DNA of 62,573 bases, counting the filler, from Rhabdomonas costata (taxonomy: Eukaryota), in assembly GCA_019059605.1 (NCBI GenBank). It is 40 parts of 40 records of this genome, joined end to end, with 100 filler letters (N's around TTAATTAATTAA, not from the genome) between each part and the next. Parts side by side here need not be neighbours in the genome. Positions count along the whole stretch, not along the records: positions 6,274 to 7,741 come from JAHMHO010015176.1; 39 more parts are not named here. One strand, 5' to 3'. The notes under the pieces were generated by a model that made no database searches, was not told the origin of the DNA, and saw only the letters and a list, made by a program, of their open reading frames with translations. A program made the translations under genes and the position numbers. Within the stretch, counting starts at the first letter, position 1. Every line of letters starts with the position of its first letter. This document shows, piece by piece, positions 3,140 through 57,973 of this stretch.

Positions 3140-4300
3140 CGGCACGTTTCCATTCCATCCCATTTGAAATGCTGGAACTGGATCACATTGGCTATCGACC
3201 ACTCCTAAGAATGCTAACAAAGAGCTTCAACCCTACAAGCTGTTTCACAAAAGACAAAACTGCCTTACATTGTGGTGAAGTTTGACCGCTATGTTCTAAA
3301 AATTCACACATGCCAACAGAAAGCGGTAAGTTCACCTCCAGCTCGGTATCAGTGCATGGGAATTTCATTTTGTGCTACTGTGCCAAGTTGGAACGGAGGT
3401 GTGGTCCACTTTCAGTTGGGAAACTTGAACAGAATGATCCGTTCAGTTACCAGATAATTAATACCGACATCATTTTAGCAGCAATGAGGACGTTATTCTG
3501 TGCATCGCGGTGTTTTTTGCAGTCCGAAAGAGCTTTGCTGTCGTACTTAGGTGGATCTCTTTGCAAGCCTACAGCATTTTTTGACTGACCATGATGACAC
3601 CGAGTCCGAAGGCTACAATGCCTTGAACACCACTGGCACCCTACCAGATCAACCAATTCACACTGGTCACTTCTGGATTAGTTTTTTCCAAAACAACTCG
3701 GCTGAAAAGAGCCGGGTGCTCCTTTCAATTCTTACCAGCACTAAGTATATTGGTACCAAATGATCAAAAGTCTTCTACGGGTTCGGCATTAGTTGAGGCA
3801 GCCGTTGTTTTTGGAAGAAAACAGCTCGCTAAGACGGAGTCCGAAGGTCTTTCAGTGTATTAATCTTTATTGATGTGACTTCAGCCACACCATTGTGGTA
3901 ACGTTTCGCTTGCACCACATTCAGATCATGGAGTCCGCTGCTCAATCACACACATTTGGCACATACCGTTTACTGCCAACAGCATGGAATCTGTCGTTCA
4001 TCGCAGTGATAAATCCTACACAAGGGCGTGGCAACCACATGGGAAACATCGGGCAAAGCAACCCCATTTAGCAGCACCATTTCGACTGTTAAATGAGTTC
4101 TTTTGTGGCCAAAACCAGTAAAACTCAGTTAATAACAGTATGGTTCCATCAAGGTTTTCAGGAATAAATGGAAGGGTGTCGCGAACTGGACTGGTTCCGG
4201 CAAAATGTGTGCCAATTTCCACCCTTGGCTTTGACCTGGATGGACCTGGCTGTACCTGGCTGTGTGACATATGTTGCCGGTTTGCCACCGCTAAAATCGT
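3140..4300 (+). mobile_element. Decayed hAT-family DNA transposase
   Basis: SIPFEMLE..GYRPLLRMLTKSFNPTS near 3140-3250 (Hermes-type DNA-binding region) and WFRQNVCQFPPLAL near 4190-4240 (hAT dimerisation motif). Many stops/frameshifts, lower GC, no intron pattern. Confidence 0.5.
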
Positions 4301-4705: not shown

Positions 4706-6049
4706 GGTGGGTGATGGCGAACGCGAGGGGCTAGAGGAAAGACTAGTTGAAGGAGTGGAAGTAAGTGACACGGTAGAAGAAGAAGTGTCTGTAATGTTCC
4801 ATGTGAACGTTCGAGAAACAGCGGTAGAGCGACTTAGGGTGAGAGTCTTCGCCGGAGTAACGGTTGCGGTCGAAGGCGGGGAAACGGAGCGGCTGGCGGT
4901 AGGGCTCGGTGTGCGCTGGGATGTCCACGACAATGATTCGGTGGCTGCCTTACTGATCGTGAGAGAGGCACTCGCTGTTGCAGTATCTCGGTCGGTTGCG
5001 GACAAGGTGCGGGTTTGCGTCACCTGTGCAAAGCTTTCCGTATTAGTTGAAGATTTCGTGGTGGTACTGGTAATCGCGAGACTCACGGACATCGAAGTGG
5101 TGACAAGCCTCGTAAGAGATGCGGTAGGCACCTGGGAGAAGGTGGGGGAGATGGTAGGCGTAGGTGAAGGAGTTGGAGGTGGACTGCAAGAAGGAGTCAA
5201 CGAGAAACTTCCGGTCGGCTTAAAAGTTTCACTGATGGTTGAAGTGGGCGTCTTGGTGAGGCTGGACCACGAGAGAGATCGAGAGGAACTGAGTGAAAGG
5301 CTCGGAGTTGCGGTTGCTCTGAAGGTACTTGAGCATGTTGAGGACACGGATGCAGTTACCACGTCCTTGCTTTCGCTCTGTGTTGTGGTCAGCGTCAGAG
5401 AGTGTCGCAAAGTAGAAGTTTTTGTCACAGTGGGAGCAACAGGACGGGTAAAGGAAGAGGAAGCACTTTCACTGCTCGTCAAAGTCGGGGTTGATGACCT
5501 CGACAGCGTGGGAAAAGGACTAATTGAGGGAGATGGGCTCCCTGTAAGGCTTTCAGCTGGGGTCAGCGACACACTCAGAGTATATGGGGGAAGTTGAGAA
5601 CGAGTTGAGCTGTACGTTTTGGAAAGGGTGCGCGAAATTGTTCGAGGAGATGTCGAAGTCAAAGAGACTGAGGAGGAGTACGTGGGACTTGCTCGGCGAC
5701 TGGATGAGGATGTGATAGTACTGCTCAAAGTGTGGCTGACGGACGCGTAGACTGAATAGCTGGAGCTGTGCGTAATCGTGAGAAGCACCGTCAATGTGGA
5801 TGACGCAACGGGTGTGGAAGAAAAAGACGGCGTGAGCGACGCAGAAGGCGTGCTGGGAGTGGAGCTGGGAGTCTGAGTGGGTGTCTTCGTTTTGGAGCTC
5901 GTTAGGCTGCGTAGGAAGCTCAGAGTGGGCGAAAGGCTTGAGGAAAGGGTCGCAGTGACGTCGTACGTCAGTGTGGCAGTTGGGGTCATAGTAATGCGGA
6001 GTACGGTGGGGGTCAATGTGCTGGTTGGCTCCCGCGTGAGAGTGTGGGA
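4706..6049 (-). CDS. Ser/Thr/Pro-rich mucin-like protein segment, partial
   Basis: About 445 uninterrupted codons dominated by S, T, P and L; open to the contig edge. Confidence 0.8.
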
Positions 6050-6273
6050 GTTTAACCATCACGCCTAAGCTCACGCCGACGCCGACCTTTTCCCTCACGG
6101 TCAGTGCAGATCCTACGAAGTCGCTTTCGCGCACGCGCACTACGTCTGTGACCTCAGGGCTTTCAGCAACGACNNNNNNNNNNNNNNNNNNNNNNNNNNN
6201 NNNNNNNNNNNNNNNNNTTAATTAATTAANNNNNNNNNNNNNNNNNNNNNNNNNNNNNNNNNNNNNNNNNNNN

Positions 6274-7741
6274 GGCCGTGCCGCAAATTGACACCAAGAG
6301 GCCCCGTGTGTCCATGACATACACCCCGGACATGTAAATGGGAAGCGCACACGATAGCACCATGCCGCCGATACCCATCCAGTACATCATCGTCTCCTTC
6401 CGCGTCACGCCCAGGGCATGCTCCCGATGCTCTTTGAAGGTGAGATTGGCGGACATATCAAGCATATCCATTTCGACGGGCATGTATAAGCCCCCTCGGT
6501 ACCGGAAATACTGATTAGACGAGGGGTCCCTTACTACACAGCGGACCCACTCATTTCGAATCAGTCGGTGTATATCCTCTCTTCGCCCCAAAACGGCTCT
6601 CACCCGATCCACTGGTGCGTCGATGACAATCAGAGCACGAATGGGCACGTGCATTTCGGTCATCTGAGTGGGTAGCCCGGGCCGCAGGTCCCCTCTGGTG
6701 CCCTGCAGAACCCCGATGTTGCCCACGACATTCAGAGGGGCCTTCGTGCCTGGGCCATGGTGCTCGTGACTGATGGTGGAGTACAGATACTCCAGGTTGA
6801 TGCCGGAGGCCACCACAAGAGCGGGAGCCAGCACCAGCTCCAGGTTCGTACCTCTCTCATCGTCCGCAAACGGGTCGTAAGAAGGCAAAAAGGCACGCCG
6901 GTCAAGAAAGCGGCCCTTGGTGAGCTCTCGCCGACCCACTACCACGGCCGCATTAGTCGCATGGTTGAGTTCAGGCCGCGCTTCGGCGGGGTCAATCGAG
7001 CGAAGGAGAACGTGCCGAAGGGCCTCCTTCTCCGTCTTTACTTCCGCGGCGAGCAAAAATCTCTGGCATCTCTCAAAGGCATTCTTCCCGCGCGCCTGCT
7101 CCAGAACCCCTTGGGCGGCTGCAAAGCGCTCACTGTGAGACCCCGGGAGGGCATCCAAATCGTAATACGTGATGGTTTCTGCAGTGGTGTTGTGCAGAGC
7201 CCCGATAAAGACGGTGTCATCCGGGATGGTGATGTCATGATTCTGTCAACAAAAAGATAACGTCTTAAAAACGTCAAAACCCAAGTCAACACATTGACAC
7301 CCATTGAAGCCCACCAGATGCCCTACTCCACCAACAAGAAGAACAGAAAGAAAATGACAAAAAAATGAACATTACTGACCTTCTTGAGATGCTCCCGCAC
7401 AACTCGGTCGTTAGCCAGCCGCGCGAAGAGCCGGGCGTTCGGGCCACCCTCGTGACCACAGCATGCGCCGCAGTTATATGCCGCCATGAACGGATTGTTC
7501 ACACTGGTGGCGCCGTGGCCCATCACAATCACAACAGGTGCGAAGCGACGAGTTTCTTGGACGCCAACGTTCTTGAAAGTTTGAGCCAGCAACGTGGCCC
7601 CCACATCTGGCGGAAAGGGCAGCTGAAAGTCGGTCCGCGGGGCCTTCACAAACCGGTCCAGAAGATCCTTCAGTTTCTGCCGAATAATGGGGGCAAACCC
7701 AAATACGTACAGCCGTGCAAGAGACAGAGGAAACAACAAAC
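6274..7741 (-). CDS. dabA: DabA/MpsB-like (DUF2309/UPF0753) inorganic carbon pump subunit with C-terminal membrane extension, partial; exons 7741-7380 and 7242-6274
   Basis: Motifs in canonical order: FAPVVIVMGHG-NNP-CGACCG-GPNAR, IPDDTVFIGALHNTT, RSIDPAEARPE, LDRRAFLPSYD, INLEYLYST, GTKAPLNVVGNIGVLQGTRGDLRPGLP, LIRNEWV. A 137-bp phase-0 GT-AG intron (7379-7243) restores the frame exactly. Confidence 0.95.
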
Positions 7742-7927: not shown

Positions 7928-9300
7928 GTGTACTCCTTTGGCAGTGACGGGGACTTTTCCTTCGAGGAGCACCTCCTGTCGGTGGCCCCGCAGTGTGAGG
8001 TGCACACCTTCGACCCCGGTAACTTCGCTGTGCGGGTATGTGACATATGCATTTCTCGAAGCGTCGCGCCCTGGCCACCGATTTTTTCTACTTTTAGTGC
8101 TGTGTCTGAAGTGCCTGGGCTAAGGGCGGCCCTTTCCTCTCGGGCATGAAGAACCAAGAGCTTCCGATGTGCGCTCAGACTCACATCTGCGACGAGTGTA
8201 AGTAGAGCTTCGTCTAAGATCATGTCGTTGTGGCCACAGTCACCATTGGCGTCCGTGCCAACCAATCCGGCTTGGTGTACCACAGAGCCCGAGCCGGAGC
8301 TGGATCCGTTGTGACCGTTTCATCGTTCCCATGGCCCCAGGGCGTGGGAAGGGTACTGAAGATGTTGTAAGGGCACCAAAAAACACAATTGAGAAAATAT
8401 GTTGGTCAACCCCGCCAACACACTCCATGACAAATCTGTGGCAAGGGAATGACATGGGCGGGACAATGACAAGAGACTTTTGGGAACTTAAGCGCCAACG
8501 CCCAGCCAACGCCCCCTCTGGGTTATGTCGAATCTGTGGAGTGTGGTCTCATCCTGGTCGACCCCACCGGGAGTTTATTCCTGGGTTACCACACTGGGAG
8601 TGGAACACAGAGTCCGAGCTGCCTGTGAGCGGCGGAGGCTGTTGTGGAGTGAAGTGTTTGTGGACAGCGCCCGTGTGTGTCGTTTCGGCTCAAGCCCGTT
8701 AACGCCCTTCTCAGCCAAAAGGGCACCCCCCCCCTGCAGTCGAGCCGCCTCGTAGGGGGCTAGAAAGCGATGCTTGGGTTGGAAGGCGATAGGCGTGCCC
8801 CCTGGGATTCCAAGAGACTTTGCAGGGGGTTAGCAGGCGATTCATGGGGTAGGGATGCTCTTCACAAGTTGCGTGCACCGCGTTTGCACGTTGTCTCTTT
8901 GTCGTTACTGGTGTGTTTCATGTGCTGTTCCTATGGGACCTTAATGGACGAAACGGTATCGTAACCGTCACACCACTTGGAACCCATTCCGCTGCAAACT
9001 TCAATCTTGACAAAGCATTACCTCAAACTCAAGGTAGGCTCTGAGTTGCGCGCATTCACGTCCCTTTCTAAATAGATCCCCAAGGATCTAAAGGTGGTCT
9101 ACCACCGGTGGGGGCCCAACCTCACCGATCGGGCCCCGCTGTACTCCCTGGCCACCATCCTGCGAAAGCTCCACCACGACCATGTGGACGTCCTGAAGAT
9201 CGACGTGGAGGGCTTCGAGCTGCGGATCTTCCCCGAGATCTTCACCGTCCCCCGCCGCCATGCCGGGGTGGGTCCCGTGGGGGTGCTACTGATGGAGCTG
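7928..9300 (+). CDS. METTL24/Methyltransf_22-like SAM methyltransferase, partial; exons 7928-8035 and 9076-9300
   Basis: VYSFG..DFSFE..CEVHTFDP and SLATILRKLHHDHVDVLKIDVEGFE motifs. Phase-0 intron GTATGT...TAG at 8036-9075. Confidence 0.85.
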
Positions 9301-24229: not shown

Positions 24230-26089
24230 CGGAGCAGGAAACTAAGCACAGAGCCCGTTGCAAAAGCATTGGAGACACAATCATCATAATATTGTAACAA
24301 CCGAAAAAAAAAAGAAGTGCACTTTAAAATCAGGCTTTGTCGGACGCAGGAAGTCAAGGGGGTGGGGAAGCTGCTTTGTTCCTGGTGGTGTTTTTGCTTC
24401 CTTTTGGCCTGTTCTTCTGAGCCCTCTTCCTTTTGAGATGACGAGGGCCGCATAAGATCAGAACAGAAATTCCAGGACCCAGGAATCAACATCAATAGCT
24501 GGGGCGAAAACGAAAGGATCGGACAGCACAATGCCAAAAGACGAGTTAAGTTGCGGGAAAGGAAATGCGCTCAAGGTAGGTAGGGGGGTTCACTTCTTTC
24601 TTCTTCTTCCCCTCTCCTCCCCTGCCCTCACCCCGGAGCACAGTTCGAGGTTCATTTTCGAAGGGCATCATTTGTCAAACTAGAAAATGACGGTGCGCGA
24701 TGCTCTTCGCAGTGAGCTGCGCACGAGCACTTATGCACGCTTATGTGGTATGTGCGAAGGACATCGATTCTATTTCCAACTGTTCGCGCGTCCACCTCAT
24801 CTTTCATTTCAGAGAGTTAGAATGTTGAACTTTTGCACAGCCCTGAAAGGAGAGTGAGCCCGAATGAGCGAAACGATGTGTCGGTCCTGGAAGGGAAGGG
24901 AAGGGAAGTGGGTTCATGGTAACCACTCGTACCCCCCCACCCCCACCTCTTTGATCTTCAGCACGGGGACCCGTTNNNNNNNNNNNNNNNNNNNNNNNNN
25001 NNNNNNNNNNNNNNNNNNNTTAATTAATTAANNNNNNNNNNNNNNNNNNNNNNNNNNNNNNNNNNNNNNNNNNNNGTGGTGTGTTTCAATTTCCGGCACT
25101 TGTCTCTCCCCTTCCGGCGCCCACGTCTATGCATTGCTTTCGTTTTTGTTTGCGCTATTGGGTGCGGACATAGAAACCGCCTTGGGGGTTCCTCACCGTG
25201 CCCGTTTCTGGTGCAGTTAATTCGTTTTCCACTAAGCTCGCAGTGATTAATGGCCGGGGGTGCGACGAACCAAAGCCAGCTTTCAAAAAAAAAAAAAGGA
25301 GAAAAAACTAAGCCCCCGATAAAAAATCATGCCCAGAATGTCCTTTAAATGGGCTTATCAAGGGGTCAGAATGGGAGTGGGAGGGTAATTTTTGTCCGCT
25401 TGCGGATGACGACCCTGCTTATTTGGGGATTGATGCCTCCCATCTCCACAGAGTTCCCTTTTCCCTTCTGGTCGCTTTTTCCATTTTCGGGTGTGGGACT
25501 CCCTTTTTGCTTTTTGCCTCGGAGGTAAAGGCCTCGGTGTGCGGTTCTCTTTTTGAGGGAACAGTGCATTCGGTGGCCCCTGGGCGAGAATGGCCATGGA
25601 GCAGGTCAGCTCTGTTGCTTGCATCCTCCTGTGCTGCCTTTTTTTTCGGGTGGCTGCGGGGAACTTTTTGTGCACGCCGGTGTTTTTCCCACCAGGTATA
25701 ATTATCCCCGTGAAACAATAAAGTTGGTGTGGGGGGGGGGGGCTAAGCCGACCCCTTGCCCATTGTTGTCTCGGACGACCCCGCACCAATTTCCGCACTT
25801 CCCTCGACGCAACCCGGGGGCAAAAAGGGGGAGATGATCGGCGATGTCATCCGGGCGTACCCCGCTGGTCTTCCTTCCCCCGAAAGCACCACAGGCGTGA
25901 AGTGGGAGCTCCCCGCCGTCTCGGATGTCCCGCTGGAAGGCTGACCTCGGGGCTGGCGGCAAGCTGCGGAGGGGGCGCGCAGGGAGTAGGTGTAGGCAGA
26001 CTGCGCACCAGCCTGGCCAGCAGCTGAACCAGTCGAGCCACTGTGGAGGCCACCAGAAGGCGTGCTCCAGCTGGCAGAAGGGAAGCACA

Positions 26090-26468
26090 CGAGGAGCTCC
26101 TATTCAATGGCGCACTCCTTGTACCCACGTGGACCCTTCGGGATTGTGGAATCACTGGCAACATGACAATACAAGCACGGCATGGCCTTGGACGGCTTTG
26201 GACCCTCCGGGTGCCCCAGAACTCTCGACCTCAGCAGCGAGCCCCATCCCCACCCCTTTGCTTCCGCTTTTCGTGCGGCTGGTGGACGGCCGGTCCCTCG
26301 GTAGAGCTACCAGCTCCAGTCTGTGACCTGATGCAACTCGTCCAATCCCGCGAAGGAATTCCTGCAGAACAACAGCGCCTGCTCCACGGAGGACTTTGCC
26401 CGACTTGCCGCCTCATCGACGCCGGTCTAGTGGCAGGTTCAGAGGTGGCTTTGACGCTTCGAGGTGGC
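26090..26468 (+). pseudogene. Tandem ubiquitin-like domains, frameshifted
   Basis: LLFNGALLVPTWTLRDCGI (end of one Ubl), PLFVRLVDGRSL in a different frame, then VQSREGIPAEQQRLLHGG...LTLRGG. Confidence 0.65.
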
Positions 26469-27111
26469 AACGCCATGTCATGGGCACCAATTCCCTGCTC
26501 GGTCGACAGGCCGAGGCACCGCCTAGACTGGGTGAACGACACNNNNNNNNNNNNNNNNNNNNNNNNNNNNNNNNNNNNNNNNNNNNTTAATTAATTAANN
26601 NNNNNNNNNNNNNNNNNNNNNNNNNNNNNNNNNNNNNNNNNNGGGGTGTGGGGAAGAAGTAGGGGCCGCGTGCGCGGCTGTGGCAATGCACACACACCGC
26701 CCGACTCCACCGCTGCGGGCGCCGCTGTGGCTGAGCCCCCAGCCGCAGCTGCAAGTGTGGTCAGAGCAGGGCAGACTGAAGGGGTGCCGCTCATCCTCGA
26801 AGTGAGCAGCGAGGTCACTGTGAAGGAAAAGACGCACAGTCGCAGAATGGCAGCCCGAAGCCGTCAGTTTTTGGTTCGTGAGCGAGGTTATCGGAGTACC
26901 AAAGAGTCTGAGGCAAGCAATAAGAAGCACAGCAATGCAGGAGCAAGGCGCGCAATGAACAGAGTGGAGAAGACGGGGTGAGGGGTGGGGGTGACTTTCA
27001 AAACAAGTTGGAGTGCACATGCGCAGGCATAAGTGCATTCATGCCCCGCCCCCTACGCATTCAGAGTTGGTGTGTATGCGTGTGCGCGTTTGTGTGTGTT
27101 GGGTGCATTGA

Positions 27112-56610: not shown

Positions 56611-57124
56611 GAAAATGGCCAGGACCGCGGATTTGCGAAGCGAGAATTTAGCGAAGGGATCTAGTTCGCCAAATTCTGTTAAACAAATGATCCAGGTGTC
56701 CGGGGAGATATGAGTAAAGCACATAGATTGGTAGATGCGGATGCCGGAAAGGTAAAGGAAGGAAAGGTGCAAAGGTATTCTTTACCGAAGAAAAGCATTA
56801 GTAGCCAGTAAAAATGTCTTCCAGTGTAAGCCTTGACTGCTAGTTGCTTCTTTAACCTTCGAAGCGCCATATTTGTTTCCCTTTTCTTCAATTTACCGAA
56901 ATTTTTTTAGATGTCTGGATGGGTCTGGAGCTTTTCGACTCTCAATTTTGGCGTGGCACAGGCCATACAACAAAAAGACCTATTCTATCCTATTCTATCC
57001 CATCCTATCGTTTGATATCCAAATTGTGTGATTTATTTCGGTGTTGTCTTATGGAGTGGAGTGTGGCGGAACCCCAAATATAGGGCGCTTGGCTTTTTTG
57101 ACTTCTCACCGTTTCGTCTTCCAG

Positions 57125-57351
57125 ACGCTCGTACAGCACTTTCTTTTTATGTCTGCTGTTGAAACGGCTGGGGCCGAGCAGGGTCCGACAAACGGGCCGC
57201 AGCTCTTTCTGACCGAATCACCGGACATGAGTGCCCTGACCCCACAGCTGGAAGCCCACGTTGCGAAAGCTCCTTCAGTCGACCTGCAGGACCGTGCTGA
57301 ATTCGTGCAGCAGTTTGCAGAGTTCTGCTCCCTGCATTGGAAAAACTCTCT
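57125..57351 (+). CDS. Exon of an unknown protein
   Basis: CAG-preceded open frame TLVQHFLFM...FCSLHWKNSL followed by GT and a poly-T intron start. Confidence 0.4.
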
Positions 57352-57973
57352 GGTTTGCCGCGTTTTTTTTTTTTTGCGTTTTTTTGTGTTACTGTTGAGG
57401 ACCACCTTGTTTTCCGGTTCCATGGACCAAAAAGCTGTCACCCGTTGTCTGCTAACAAAACTTGGTCGGCTGAAAATGGCGTCGTGCGGAGTTGTATTCA
57501 TGACTTTCTAGCACGAAACGAGCGAATGTGCATTTCACCGGAGTAACCAGCTTACAGCTGACAATGGGTACCCGCCCAGTATCAATCCCTGTGGAAACCC
57601 AGGAACGAGCGGATCAACTCTATGTCAAAAACTGGCACGGGTTGTCTCCAACCTCTTGCCCACACCGTACTTCACGGTCGCCTCACCGTCGCCGATGCCT
57701 TTGGGTCAGTCACAAAACGCGGCCATCTCCGGTGGCTCCTTCTTGGTCAGTTTGGCTTCCGTTACCTCGATTTGATGATTTCTAGACTCAATGTGCCACA
57801 AATGACATTACGAGGCAGGACTCCGTCACGCTCAAACAGGCAGGCAAAAAGAATTAGAAAACCAAACCAACAANNNNNNNNNNNNNNNNNNNNNNNNNNN
57901 NNNNNNNNNNNNNNNNNTTAATTAATTAANNNNNNNNNNNNNNNNNNNNNNNNNNNNNNNNNNNNNNNNNNNN

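Follow-up and report, generated by a model that had tools for sequence, protein, structure and literature searches.

A dabA-related gene fragment with a predicted intron in the Rhabdomonas costata assembly points to a eukaryotic clade of single-chain DAB proteins

The window analyzed here is a 62,573-nucleotide stretch made up of 40 contigs from the Rhabdomonas costata genome assembly (GenBank GCA_019059605.1). One of these contigs, JAHMHO010015176.1, carries a fragment of a gene of the DabA family, the β-carbonic anhydrase (β-CA)-like component of the DAB/MpsAB pumps that have been described as "found throughout prokaryotic phyla." The fragment probably comes from a eukaryotic nuclear gene that encodes a single-chain DAB, a protein in which a DabA module and a DabB module are joined in one polypeptide and which, by homology, would carry out gradient-driven CO2 hydration. 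In every respect that could be checked from the sequence, the gene looks eukaryotic, and its closest relatives appear to form a widespread clade of eukaryotic single-chain DABs that is undescribed as far as we found. The 40 contigs are 1459 to 1471 bp each and are joined by linkers of about 44 N's, TTAATTAATTAA, and about 44 more N's, which act as six-frame stop linkers. Because the contigs are unlinked, open reading frame (ORF) or context arguments that cross a linker are void and the neighboring contigs are uninformative about genomic context. The DabA gene fragment fills exactly one contig, positions 6274 to 7741, on the minus strand.

The fragment was modeled as two exons, both of which matched the Pfam DabA profile PF10070 (formerly DUF2309; curated cutoff, 25 bits). 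Exon 1 (7380-7739, 120 amino acids [aa]) matched profile positions 439 to 515 (E = 1.5e-28; 100.1 bits), and exon 2 (6274-7242, 323 aa) matched positions 517 to 747 of 747 (E = 8.9e-82; 276.1 bits). The exons are therefore colinear, with a single profile position between them, and together they cover the C-terminal ∼310 positions of the profile. Both are open to the contig ends, giving 443 codons in which every invariant residue of the family is kept. At E ≤ 0.01, PF10070 was the only Pfam match; the canonical β-CA profile PF00484 was not matched, and neither exon matched an NCBIfam family. The likeness of DabA to β-CA is structural (PMC13144422). The only PDB sequence match for both exons was 9rd0_A, the DabA2 chain of Halothiobacillus neapolitanus, to which exon 1 aligned at residues 508 to 565 and the DabA part of exon 2 at residues 571 to 824. 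The latter part had 87 invariant columns across 16 sequences. Exon 1, which was 55 to 65% identical to fused homologs over residues 1 to 120 (tblastn), contains the portion of the β-CA-like domain I that holds two of the zinc ligands, preceded by the probable second helix of the membrane finger. The hydrophobic segment at the very start of the model is the probable counterpart of this second finger helix, α17 of DabA2; the membrane finger is described in PMC13144422 and in a preprint (10.64898/2026.03.13.711513). In the fused homolog P0102, the segment comes 12 to 13 residues after a conserved Glu aligned to DabA2 Glu444, and the equivalent of this finger Glu would sit 12 to 13 residues beyond the end of the contig.

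The metal site of DabA2 consists of Cys351, His524, and Cys539, supported by an Asp353-Arg355 dyad (PMC13144422, 10.64898/2026.03.13.711513). His75 and Cys90 of exon 1, which are 15 residues apart, align to His524 and Cys539, in agreement with the ligand spacing proposed in the first-pass annotation. Among the aligned rows with a residue at these columns, His was present in 54 of 54 and Cys in 54 of 54. In exon 2, His17 aligns with DabA2 His585 and Glu22 with Asp590. The CxDxR ligands lie ∼170 to 180 residues before the His in the homologs, and the contig begins only 74 residues before it, so these ligands would be off the contig, where the first-pass annotation had also placed them. Among 58 fused homologs, the equivalents of Cys351, Asp353, Arg355, and His524 were invariant (the first three are C254, D256, and R258 in P0102), and Glu444 and Cys539 were at least 90% conserved. 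The channel module of these homologs keeps Lys...Ser-Gln...Gly-Pro-Thr-Pro (KSxQ...GPTP), which we take to be a signature of NuoL-type subunits. One further position differs from DabA2. Leu658 is strictly conserved in 150 DabA2 homologs, where it replaces the transition-state Gln/His of β-CA (PMC13144422), and the contig has a His at this position. The same His recurred in every one of the 55 aligned rows. A large DabA subfamily thus seems to keep the β-CA-like His, in a sample biased by a search pattern that itself contains that His. A eukaryote-specific change at this position was considered and rejected, because all 30 prokaryote-type rows have His.

The DabA profile match runs out at exon 2 residue 233, but the reading frame continues for a further 90 residues, up to the contig edge. 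This tail aligned over 85 to 90 positions (16 to 37 identities) with all 24 of the fused proteins compared, which run on for another 368 to 474 aa. With the 30 prokaryote-type DabA rows, alignment extended over only 26 to 32 positions, and these proteins ended 5 to 40 aa later. In the fused protein P0088, recognizable homology to DabB starts near residue 878, which is roughly where the contig ends. The contig thus appears to be part of a single-chain DabA-DabB fusion gene and not, as had been proposed in the first-pass annotation, of a gene for the DabA subunit alone, and its missing 3′ end would encode the DabB module. Among longer proteins, 623 relatives were found, and 111 of the best 120 carried both PF10070 and Proton_antipo_M (PF00361), the family of DabB and NuoL, in the order DabA then PF00361 in all six fused proteins scanned. 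Among the matches listed, the top relatives were ∼1150 to 1390 aa long and 59 to 64% identical over 99 to 100% of exon 2. The AlphaFold2 model of P0102 formed one confident body (mean predicted local distance difference test score, 86.9; predicted template modeling score, 0.88) with a helical hairpin at the finger position and, toward the C terminus, around a dozen membrane helices. The predicted transmembrane helix in the contig's tail corresponds approximately, via the alignment, to the long helix at residues 742 to 777 of this model. When compared to the PDB with Foldseek, the C-terminal module of P0102 matched ND5/NuoL/NdhF chains with E values down to 3e-7.

The two exons are separated by 137 bp (7243-7379) that behave as a phase-0 spliceosomal intron. 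This segment has stops in all three frames, its length is not a multiple of 3, and its GC content is 38.7%, compared to 57.9% in the exons. For comparison, both exon translations were aligned to 84 related loci, of which 80 were metagenomic and 4 came from prokaryote genomes. In all 80 loci that matched both parts, the insert was absent and the parts shared one frame. The spacing between the parts equaled the number of unaligned residues in 34 of these loci and was one residue fewer in the other 46, and in six loci with full-length part matches (L006, L007, L008, L018, L019, and L027) the parts abutted base to base. Therefore, excision of exactly this segment gives a gap-free protein. The intron predicted in the first-pass annotation is thus supported by its ends, its drop in GC content, and its absence from the 80 loci, all of which are sequence features. 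A transposon or miniature inverted-repeat transposable element as the source of the 137 bp was rejected, as no second copy was present in the window. GT-AG introns were also seen elsewhere in fused metagenome loci (L007, 3546-3621; L023, ∼3704-3838; L065, 1150-1410). These sit at other sites, so intron positions in the fused family are not conserved. Another relative, the 304-aa protein P0001 (62% identical, from a 1328-bp contig), has an ORF that begins three codons before the first residue of exon 2, which would be consistent with a related organism having an intron at this same site.

The named sources of fused proteins were all eukaryotes, comprising eight species: Paulinella chromatophora, Paulinella micropora, Fabomonas tropica, Apocalathium hangoei, Clydonella sp., Pseudopedinella elastica, Hyaloraphidium curvatum, and Amoebophrya sp. 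A25. Rhodomonas salina gave only a weak partial match. The clade thus spans Rhizaria, alveolates, a stramenopile, an amoebozoan, an ancyromonad, and a fungus, and the idea of a transfer private to one protist had to be abandoned. Identity in the DabA part peaked at 74% over 156 columns, to Clydonella. Since several of the records are transcriptome ORFs (MMETSP, TSA, and Trinity), homologs of the gene are expressed. Among the metagenome loci, L005 to L033, L040, L065, L067, and L083 were fused in one frame and were 46 to 62% identical to exon 2 where most of the exon was matched. A eukaryotic Rsa3 ribosome-assembly gene adjoins the fused gene in L006. The remaining metagenome loci were at most 48% identical, except L080 (50% over a truncated match), and had separate dabA and then dabB ORFs or, in six loci, ended before dabB.

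Prokaryotes were scanned at one genome per species (185,579 species), with the two most conserved motifs of the clade as the pattern. Only four relatives were found, 40 to 45% identical, in metagenome-assembled genomes (MAGs) of Bdellovibrionota, Oligoflexales, Spirosomataceae, and Bdellovibrionaceae. In the three with a whole dabA, dabA and dabB are separate genes; the fourth, on a short contig that breaks off within dabA, has its two matches in different frames. Because the scan was limited by its pattern, absence from prokaryotes is unproven. In the Bdellovibrionota (L001, 651-6711) and Oligoflexales (L002, 53-5257) MAGs, the overlapping dabA and dabB genes are immediately preceded by a SulP-family transporter gene. 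This family includes bicarbonate transporters, and the arrangement suggests that the three genes form one inorganic-carbon locus. The viral contigs gave 25 pattern matches, none of which was a relative, and no giant-virus carrier was seen among them. In the ESM Atlas, the best score was 0.80, to unnamed fungal clusters, which is below the meaningful level.

A tree was built from the 328 columns of the DabA part covered by the contig (quick IQ-TREE run, LG+C20+F+G4, unrooted). Its 55 rows were the spliced model, 9 EukProt/NCBI eukaryote proteins (the eight named species and one entry without a species name), 15 fused metagenome ORFs, 28 separate-type ORFs, and 2 bacterial proteins. Near-duplicates were dropped (L011, L012, and L014, like L013; L021, L022, L024, and L025, like L023; L007, like L008; L029 and L030, like L028), as were loci that were truncated or split by introns and all other separate-type loci. 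The contig model, the 9 eukaryote rows, and the 15 fused rows were separated from the 30 prokaryote-type rows by a branch of length 0.89 with a Shimodaira-Hasegawa-like approximate likelihood ratio test (SH-aLRT) value of 100. Within the clade, the contig clustered with Paulinella, Clydonella, Hyaloraphidium, and Fabomonas in a group without a resolved branching order, and the alveolates grouped with Pseudopedinella. The phylogeny called for in the first-pass annotation places the contig on the fused eukaryotic side. The argument made there against a bacterial contaminant holds up, with the nearest relatives eukaryotic and the contig inside their clade. These results argue that the fused form has a single origin; any transfer would have been old or would have been followed by later spread among eukaryotes. 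Neither a donor nor a date is claimed, given the lack of a root and the bias that the search motifs bring into the prokaryote sample.

How the eukaryotic form compares to known systems is clearest for DAB2 (DabA2/DabB2) of H. neapolitanus, for which cryo-electron microscopy structures are available (9rd0, 9rd8, and 9rd9; PMC13144422, 10.64898/2026.03.13.711513, 10.1101/476713). The Pfam families are the same; the contig keeps the equivalents of His524, Cys539, and His585, and the fused homologs keep those of Cys351, Asp353, Arg355, and Glu444 together with the NuoL-like module and its KSxQ...GPTP motif. However, DAB2 is two proteins, whereas the eukaryotic form is one polypeptide, A then B, with N-terminal extensions in the homologs. 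It also differs in being encoded by a probable nuclear gene with a predicted intron and in having Glu at Asp590 and His at Leu658 in the contig. Identity between the contig and DAB2 was about 30 to 35%, as read off printed alignments. The fusion of DAB2 that was engineered by its authors has the opposite order, B then A. MpsAB of Staphylococcus aureus belongs to the same two Pfam families but consists of two separate bacterial genes (PMC6689103, PMC8552792). It supplies bicarbonate in this nonautotroph, and by analogy a similar role would be expected in heterotrophic eukaryote carriers. The available text of the MpsAB surveys covers finished bacterial genomes only and mentions no eukaryotic homologs (PMC6689103, PMC8552792).

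The nearest prokaryote operons (L001, L002, and the Spirosomataceae MAG L003) share with the eukaryotic form the order dabA then dabB and the His at the Leu658 position. In the two loci with ORFs listed, dabA and dabB overlap by 40 bases (L001) and 4 bases (L002), an arrangement in which losing a single stop could join the two genes. Unlike the fusion, however, L001 to L003 have separate ORFs in different frames, are 40 to 45% identical, and lie across the long branch of the tree. A bacterial DabA:DabB fusion is noted for Acidimicrobium ferrooxidans (10.1101/476713, figure supplement); like the eukaryotic form, it is a natural single-chain DAB, but it is bacterial. Fusion of DabA to DabB as such is therefore not new. 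A broader parallel is found in the cyanobacterial NDH-1MS/MS′ complexes (CupA/B) and the γ-CA domain of plant mitochondrial complex I, where a CA-like module is combined with an antiporter-like proton channel to convert CO2 to bicarbonate against equilibrium. The CA modules in these are unrelated to DabA and the complexes are redox driven with many subunits, which makes this an analogy and not membership. The first-pass annotation named no characterized eukaryotic DabA, and likewise no paper on a eukaryotic DAB was found in full-text literature searches, with subscription-only papers and supplements beyond their reach, and the string "eukaryot" has zero occurrences in the available text of 10.1101/476713, 10.64898/2026.03.13.711513, and PMC13144422. 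Homologs are already present in public eukaryote protein sets but are uncharacterized.

By homology to the bacterial systems, the protein would consist of an N-terminal, β-CA-like DabA module with a Cys-His-Cys zinc site, an Asp-Arg dyad, and a helical finger dipping into the membrane, with a short linker leading to a DabB module at the C terminus, a NuoL/ND5-like cation channel. It would sit in an energized membrane with DabA facing the inner (N) side, as with bacterial DAB2/MpsAB. Inward flow of H+ (or Na+) through the DabB module would be sensed via the finger and would switch on the buried zinc site, driving one-way hydration of CO2 to bicarbonate. Finger-coupled one-way hydration has been proposed for DAB2 (PMC13144422). 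Rescue of E. coli free of CA and its loss with an uncoupler, which would show gradient-dependent uptake of inorganic carbon, have been tested for bacterial DAB2/MpsAB only (10.1101/476713, PMC6689103). Gradient-driven CO2 hydration is the likely function of the eukaryotic form, and its protein is inferred to be active.

Several observations weigh against reading the contig as part of an active single-chain DAB gene of the source organism, and three other accounts of the gene draw on them. The contig ends would leave out the N terminus, the first zinc-ligand Cys with its Asp-Arg dyad, the finger Glu, and all of the DabB module. What the contig covers is the last third of the DabA module, two of the three zinc ligands, and the first helix past the linker, and no other piece of the gene, including a PF00361 partner, was found elsewhere in the window. 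The top 50 Foldseek matches of P0102 were all ND5/NuoL/NdhF, and 9rd0 was not among the matches listed. Purified bacterial DAB2 showed no CA activity in vitro (PMC13144422), so activity of the eukaryotic DAB cannot be read from its sequence. In the source organism, removal of the intron and expression of the gene are predictions from genomic DNA. This last point would leave room for a bacterial dabA, either a contaminant or a recent nuclear insertion, that was broken into a pseudogene by a 137-bp insertion with GT-AG ends by chance; taken as bacterial DNA, the gene indeed splits into two frames with stops. We find this hardly credible. The GT and AG lie exactly where excision gives a gap-free in-frame join, a pyrimidine tract and an intron-like drop in GC content accompany them, the 443 codons are open with every invariant residue kept, the nearest prokaryote genes are 40 to 48% identical compared to 59 to 64% in the eukaryotic clade, and the fused eukaryotic proteins have the same type of tail. 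This tail makes it quite improbable that the gene encodes a stand-alone DabA with a C-terminal membrane anchor and a separately encoded DabB, a version built on the DabA subunit of the first-pass annotation. The contig itself has no PF00361, only the linker and one hydrophobic helix, as that version would have it, but the 90-residue tail aligned throughout with the fused proteins (24 of 24) and with no separate-type DabA, and all clade members with a complete 3′ end are fused. The contig might also be eukaryotic but from a second eukaryote in the sample (prey, symbiont, or culture contaminant) and not from the organism of the assembly. Its trinucleotide likeness to the rest of the window was 0.70, the seventh lowest of 40, so such an origin could apply. 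In addition, it is the sole contig of the 40 that is almost wholly coding with a strong Pfam match; 30 long ORFs elsewhere gave a ubiquitin match above the Pfam cutoff, a partial FkbM match, and a weak PAP2 match below it. However, its GC content of 56% is within the 45 to 59% of the other contigs, six others resemble the rest even less, and a set of short contigs from one size class should contain both coding and noncoding DNA. We therefore regard a second eukaryote as unlikely.

The membrane in which a eukaryotic single-chain DAB would work is the weakest step. The mitochondrial inner membrane, where the protein would provide bicarbonate for matrix carboxylases or trap respiratory CO2, has roughly an even chance of being the right one. 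A DabA facing the matrix would match the bacterial topology. Among 87 listed relatives of at least 1100 aa, the conserved start could be placed in 65, and 55 of these had an N-terminal extension of at least 20 aa. By a crude, home-made rule for presequences (Met start, with at least three R/K and at most one D/E in the first 30 residues), 32 of the 55 extensions passed, being basic and nonacidic, and many begin with MLR and have no acidic residue. Against a mitochondrial location, the other 23 failed, including dinoflagellate, Amoebophrya, and Pseudopedinella proteins with acidic N termini. This would suit the same activity in another membrane, either the plasma membrane, energized by an H+-ATPase with DabA in the cytosol, or a plastid or chromatophore envelope, serving carbon-concentrating uptake. 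Bacterial DABs are in the cell membrane (10.1101/476713), and there are phototrophs among the carriers (Paulinella, Apocalathium, and Pseudopedinella). The basic extensions speak against this alternative, and the N terminus of the contig's own gene, which would bear on it, is missing. Fabomonas, Hyaloraphidium, Clydonella, and Amoebophrya are nonphotosynthetic. Because several carriers are thus not photosynthetic, carbon concentration for photosynthesis is unlikely as a general role of the carbon-concentrating system suggested in the first-pass annotation. We consider another membrane possible but not probable. The most far-reaching version of the mitochondrial location is more doubtful again. 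It would make the protein an old, possibly ancestral eukaryotic DAB of the mitochondrial inner membrane that traps CO2 in the matrix by means of the respiratory proton gradient. It would then have survived here and there across at least five supergroups and disappeared from animals, plants, and yeasts.

Table 1. Features of the dabA-dabB-type gene fragment, in coordinates of the window
Feature	Position	Strand	Remarks
Exon 1	7380..7741	-	120 codons; frame from 7739; 5′ end open at contig edge
Hydrophobic segment, model residues 1-19	7683..7739	-	Kyte-Doolittle mean of 1.79 over 19 residues
Zinc-ligand His equivalent (exon 1 His75)	7515..7517	-	Aligns to His524 of 9rd0_A
Zinc-ligand Cys equivalent (exon 1 Cys90)	7470..7472	-	Aligns to Cys539 of 9rd0_A
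Predicted intron, 137 bp, GT...AG, phase 0	7243..7379	-	Starts GTCAGT; pyrimidine run and CAG at end
Exon 2 DabA part, residues 1-233	6544..7242	-	Rest of β-CA-like domain I and C-terminal part of domain II
His at DabA2 Leu658 position	6961..6963	-	Gapless RPELNH versus RPEWGL in 9rd0_A
Exon 2 tail, residues 234-323	6274..6543	-	Linker and first membrane helix; 3′ end open at contig edge
Predicted transmembrane helix, model residues 409-430	6313..6378	-	Kyte-Doolittle windows of 1.46 to 1.59

Other contigs of the window carried few recognizable features. An ORF at 26028-26540 (plus strand) had a partial match to ubiquitin (PF00240; E = 1.5e-7; profile positions 21 to 45 of 72) with a second ubiquitin-like stretch upstream, and both appear to be exon fragments from a ubiquitin-like gene of a eukaryote. 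At 9076-9300 (plus strand), a partial FkbM-type methyltransferase domain (PF05050; E = 1.8e-6) runs into a contig end, and a weak PAP2_3 match at 57032-57508 (plus strand) was below the Pfam cutoff. Most of the contig adjoining the DabA contig is taken up by a 451-codon open frame (4706-6058, minus strand) that consists almost wholly of Ser/Thr/Pro-rich, low-complexity, mucin-like repeats. An Rfam search of the whole window found nothing.

The contig itself is only a fragment, and its value is as a pointer to the family and as intron-level genomic evidence of a eukaryotic gene. For plant engineers, the family would offer a natural one-gene DAB that is already encoded in the nucleus; uncertain energization and the need to import two proteins have been named as obstacles to DABs in chloroplasts (PMC8438413). 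If the ancestral mitochondrial version were true, the protein would be a single-protein counterpart of NDH-1MS and of the γ-CA domain of plant complex I, and a ready-made, nuclear-encoded, organelle-imported, one-gene bicarbonate pump would be at hand for engineering. The distribution of the clade raises an evolutionary question as well, namely, one origin followed by many losses versus spread between eukaryotes. More generally, eukaryotic DABs would add an energy-coupled CO2-hydrating enzyme, perhaps a mitochondrial one, to eukaryotic cell biology, with a bearing on how protists and early fungi supply bicarbonate-dependent carboxylases and handle respiratory CO2.

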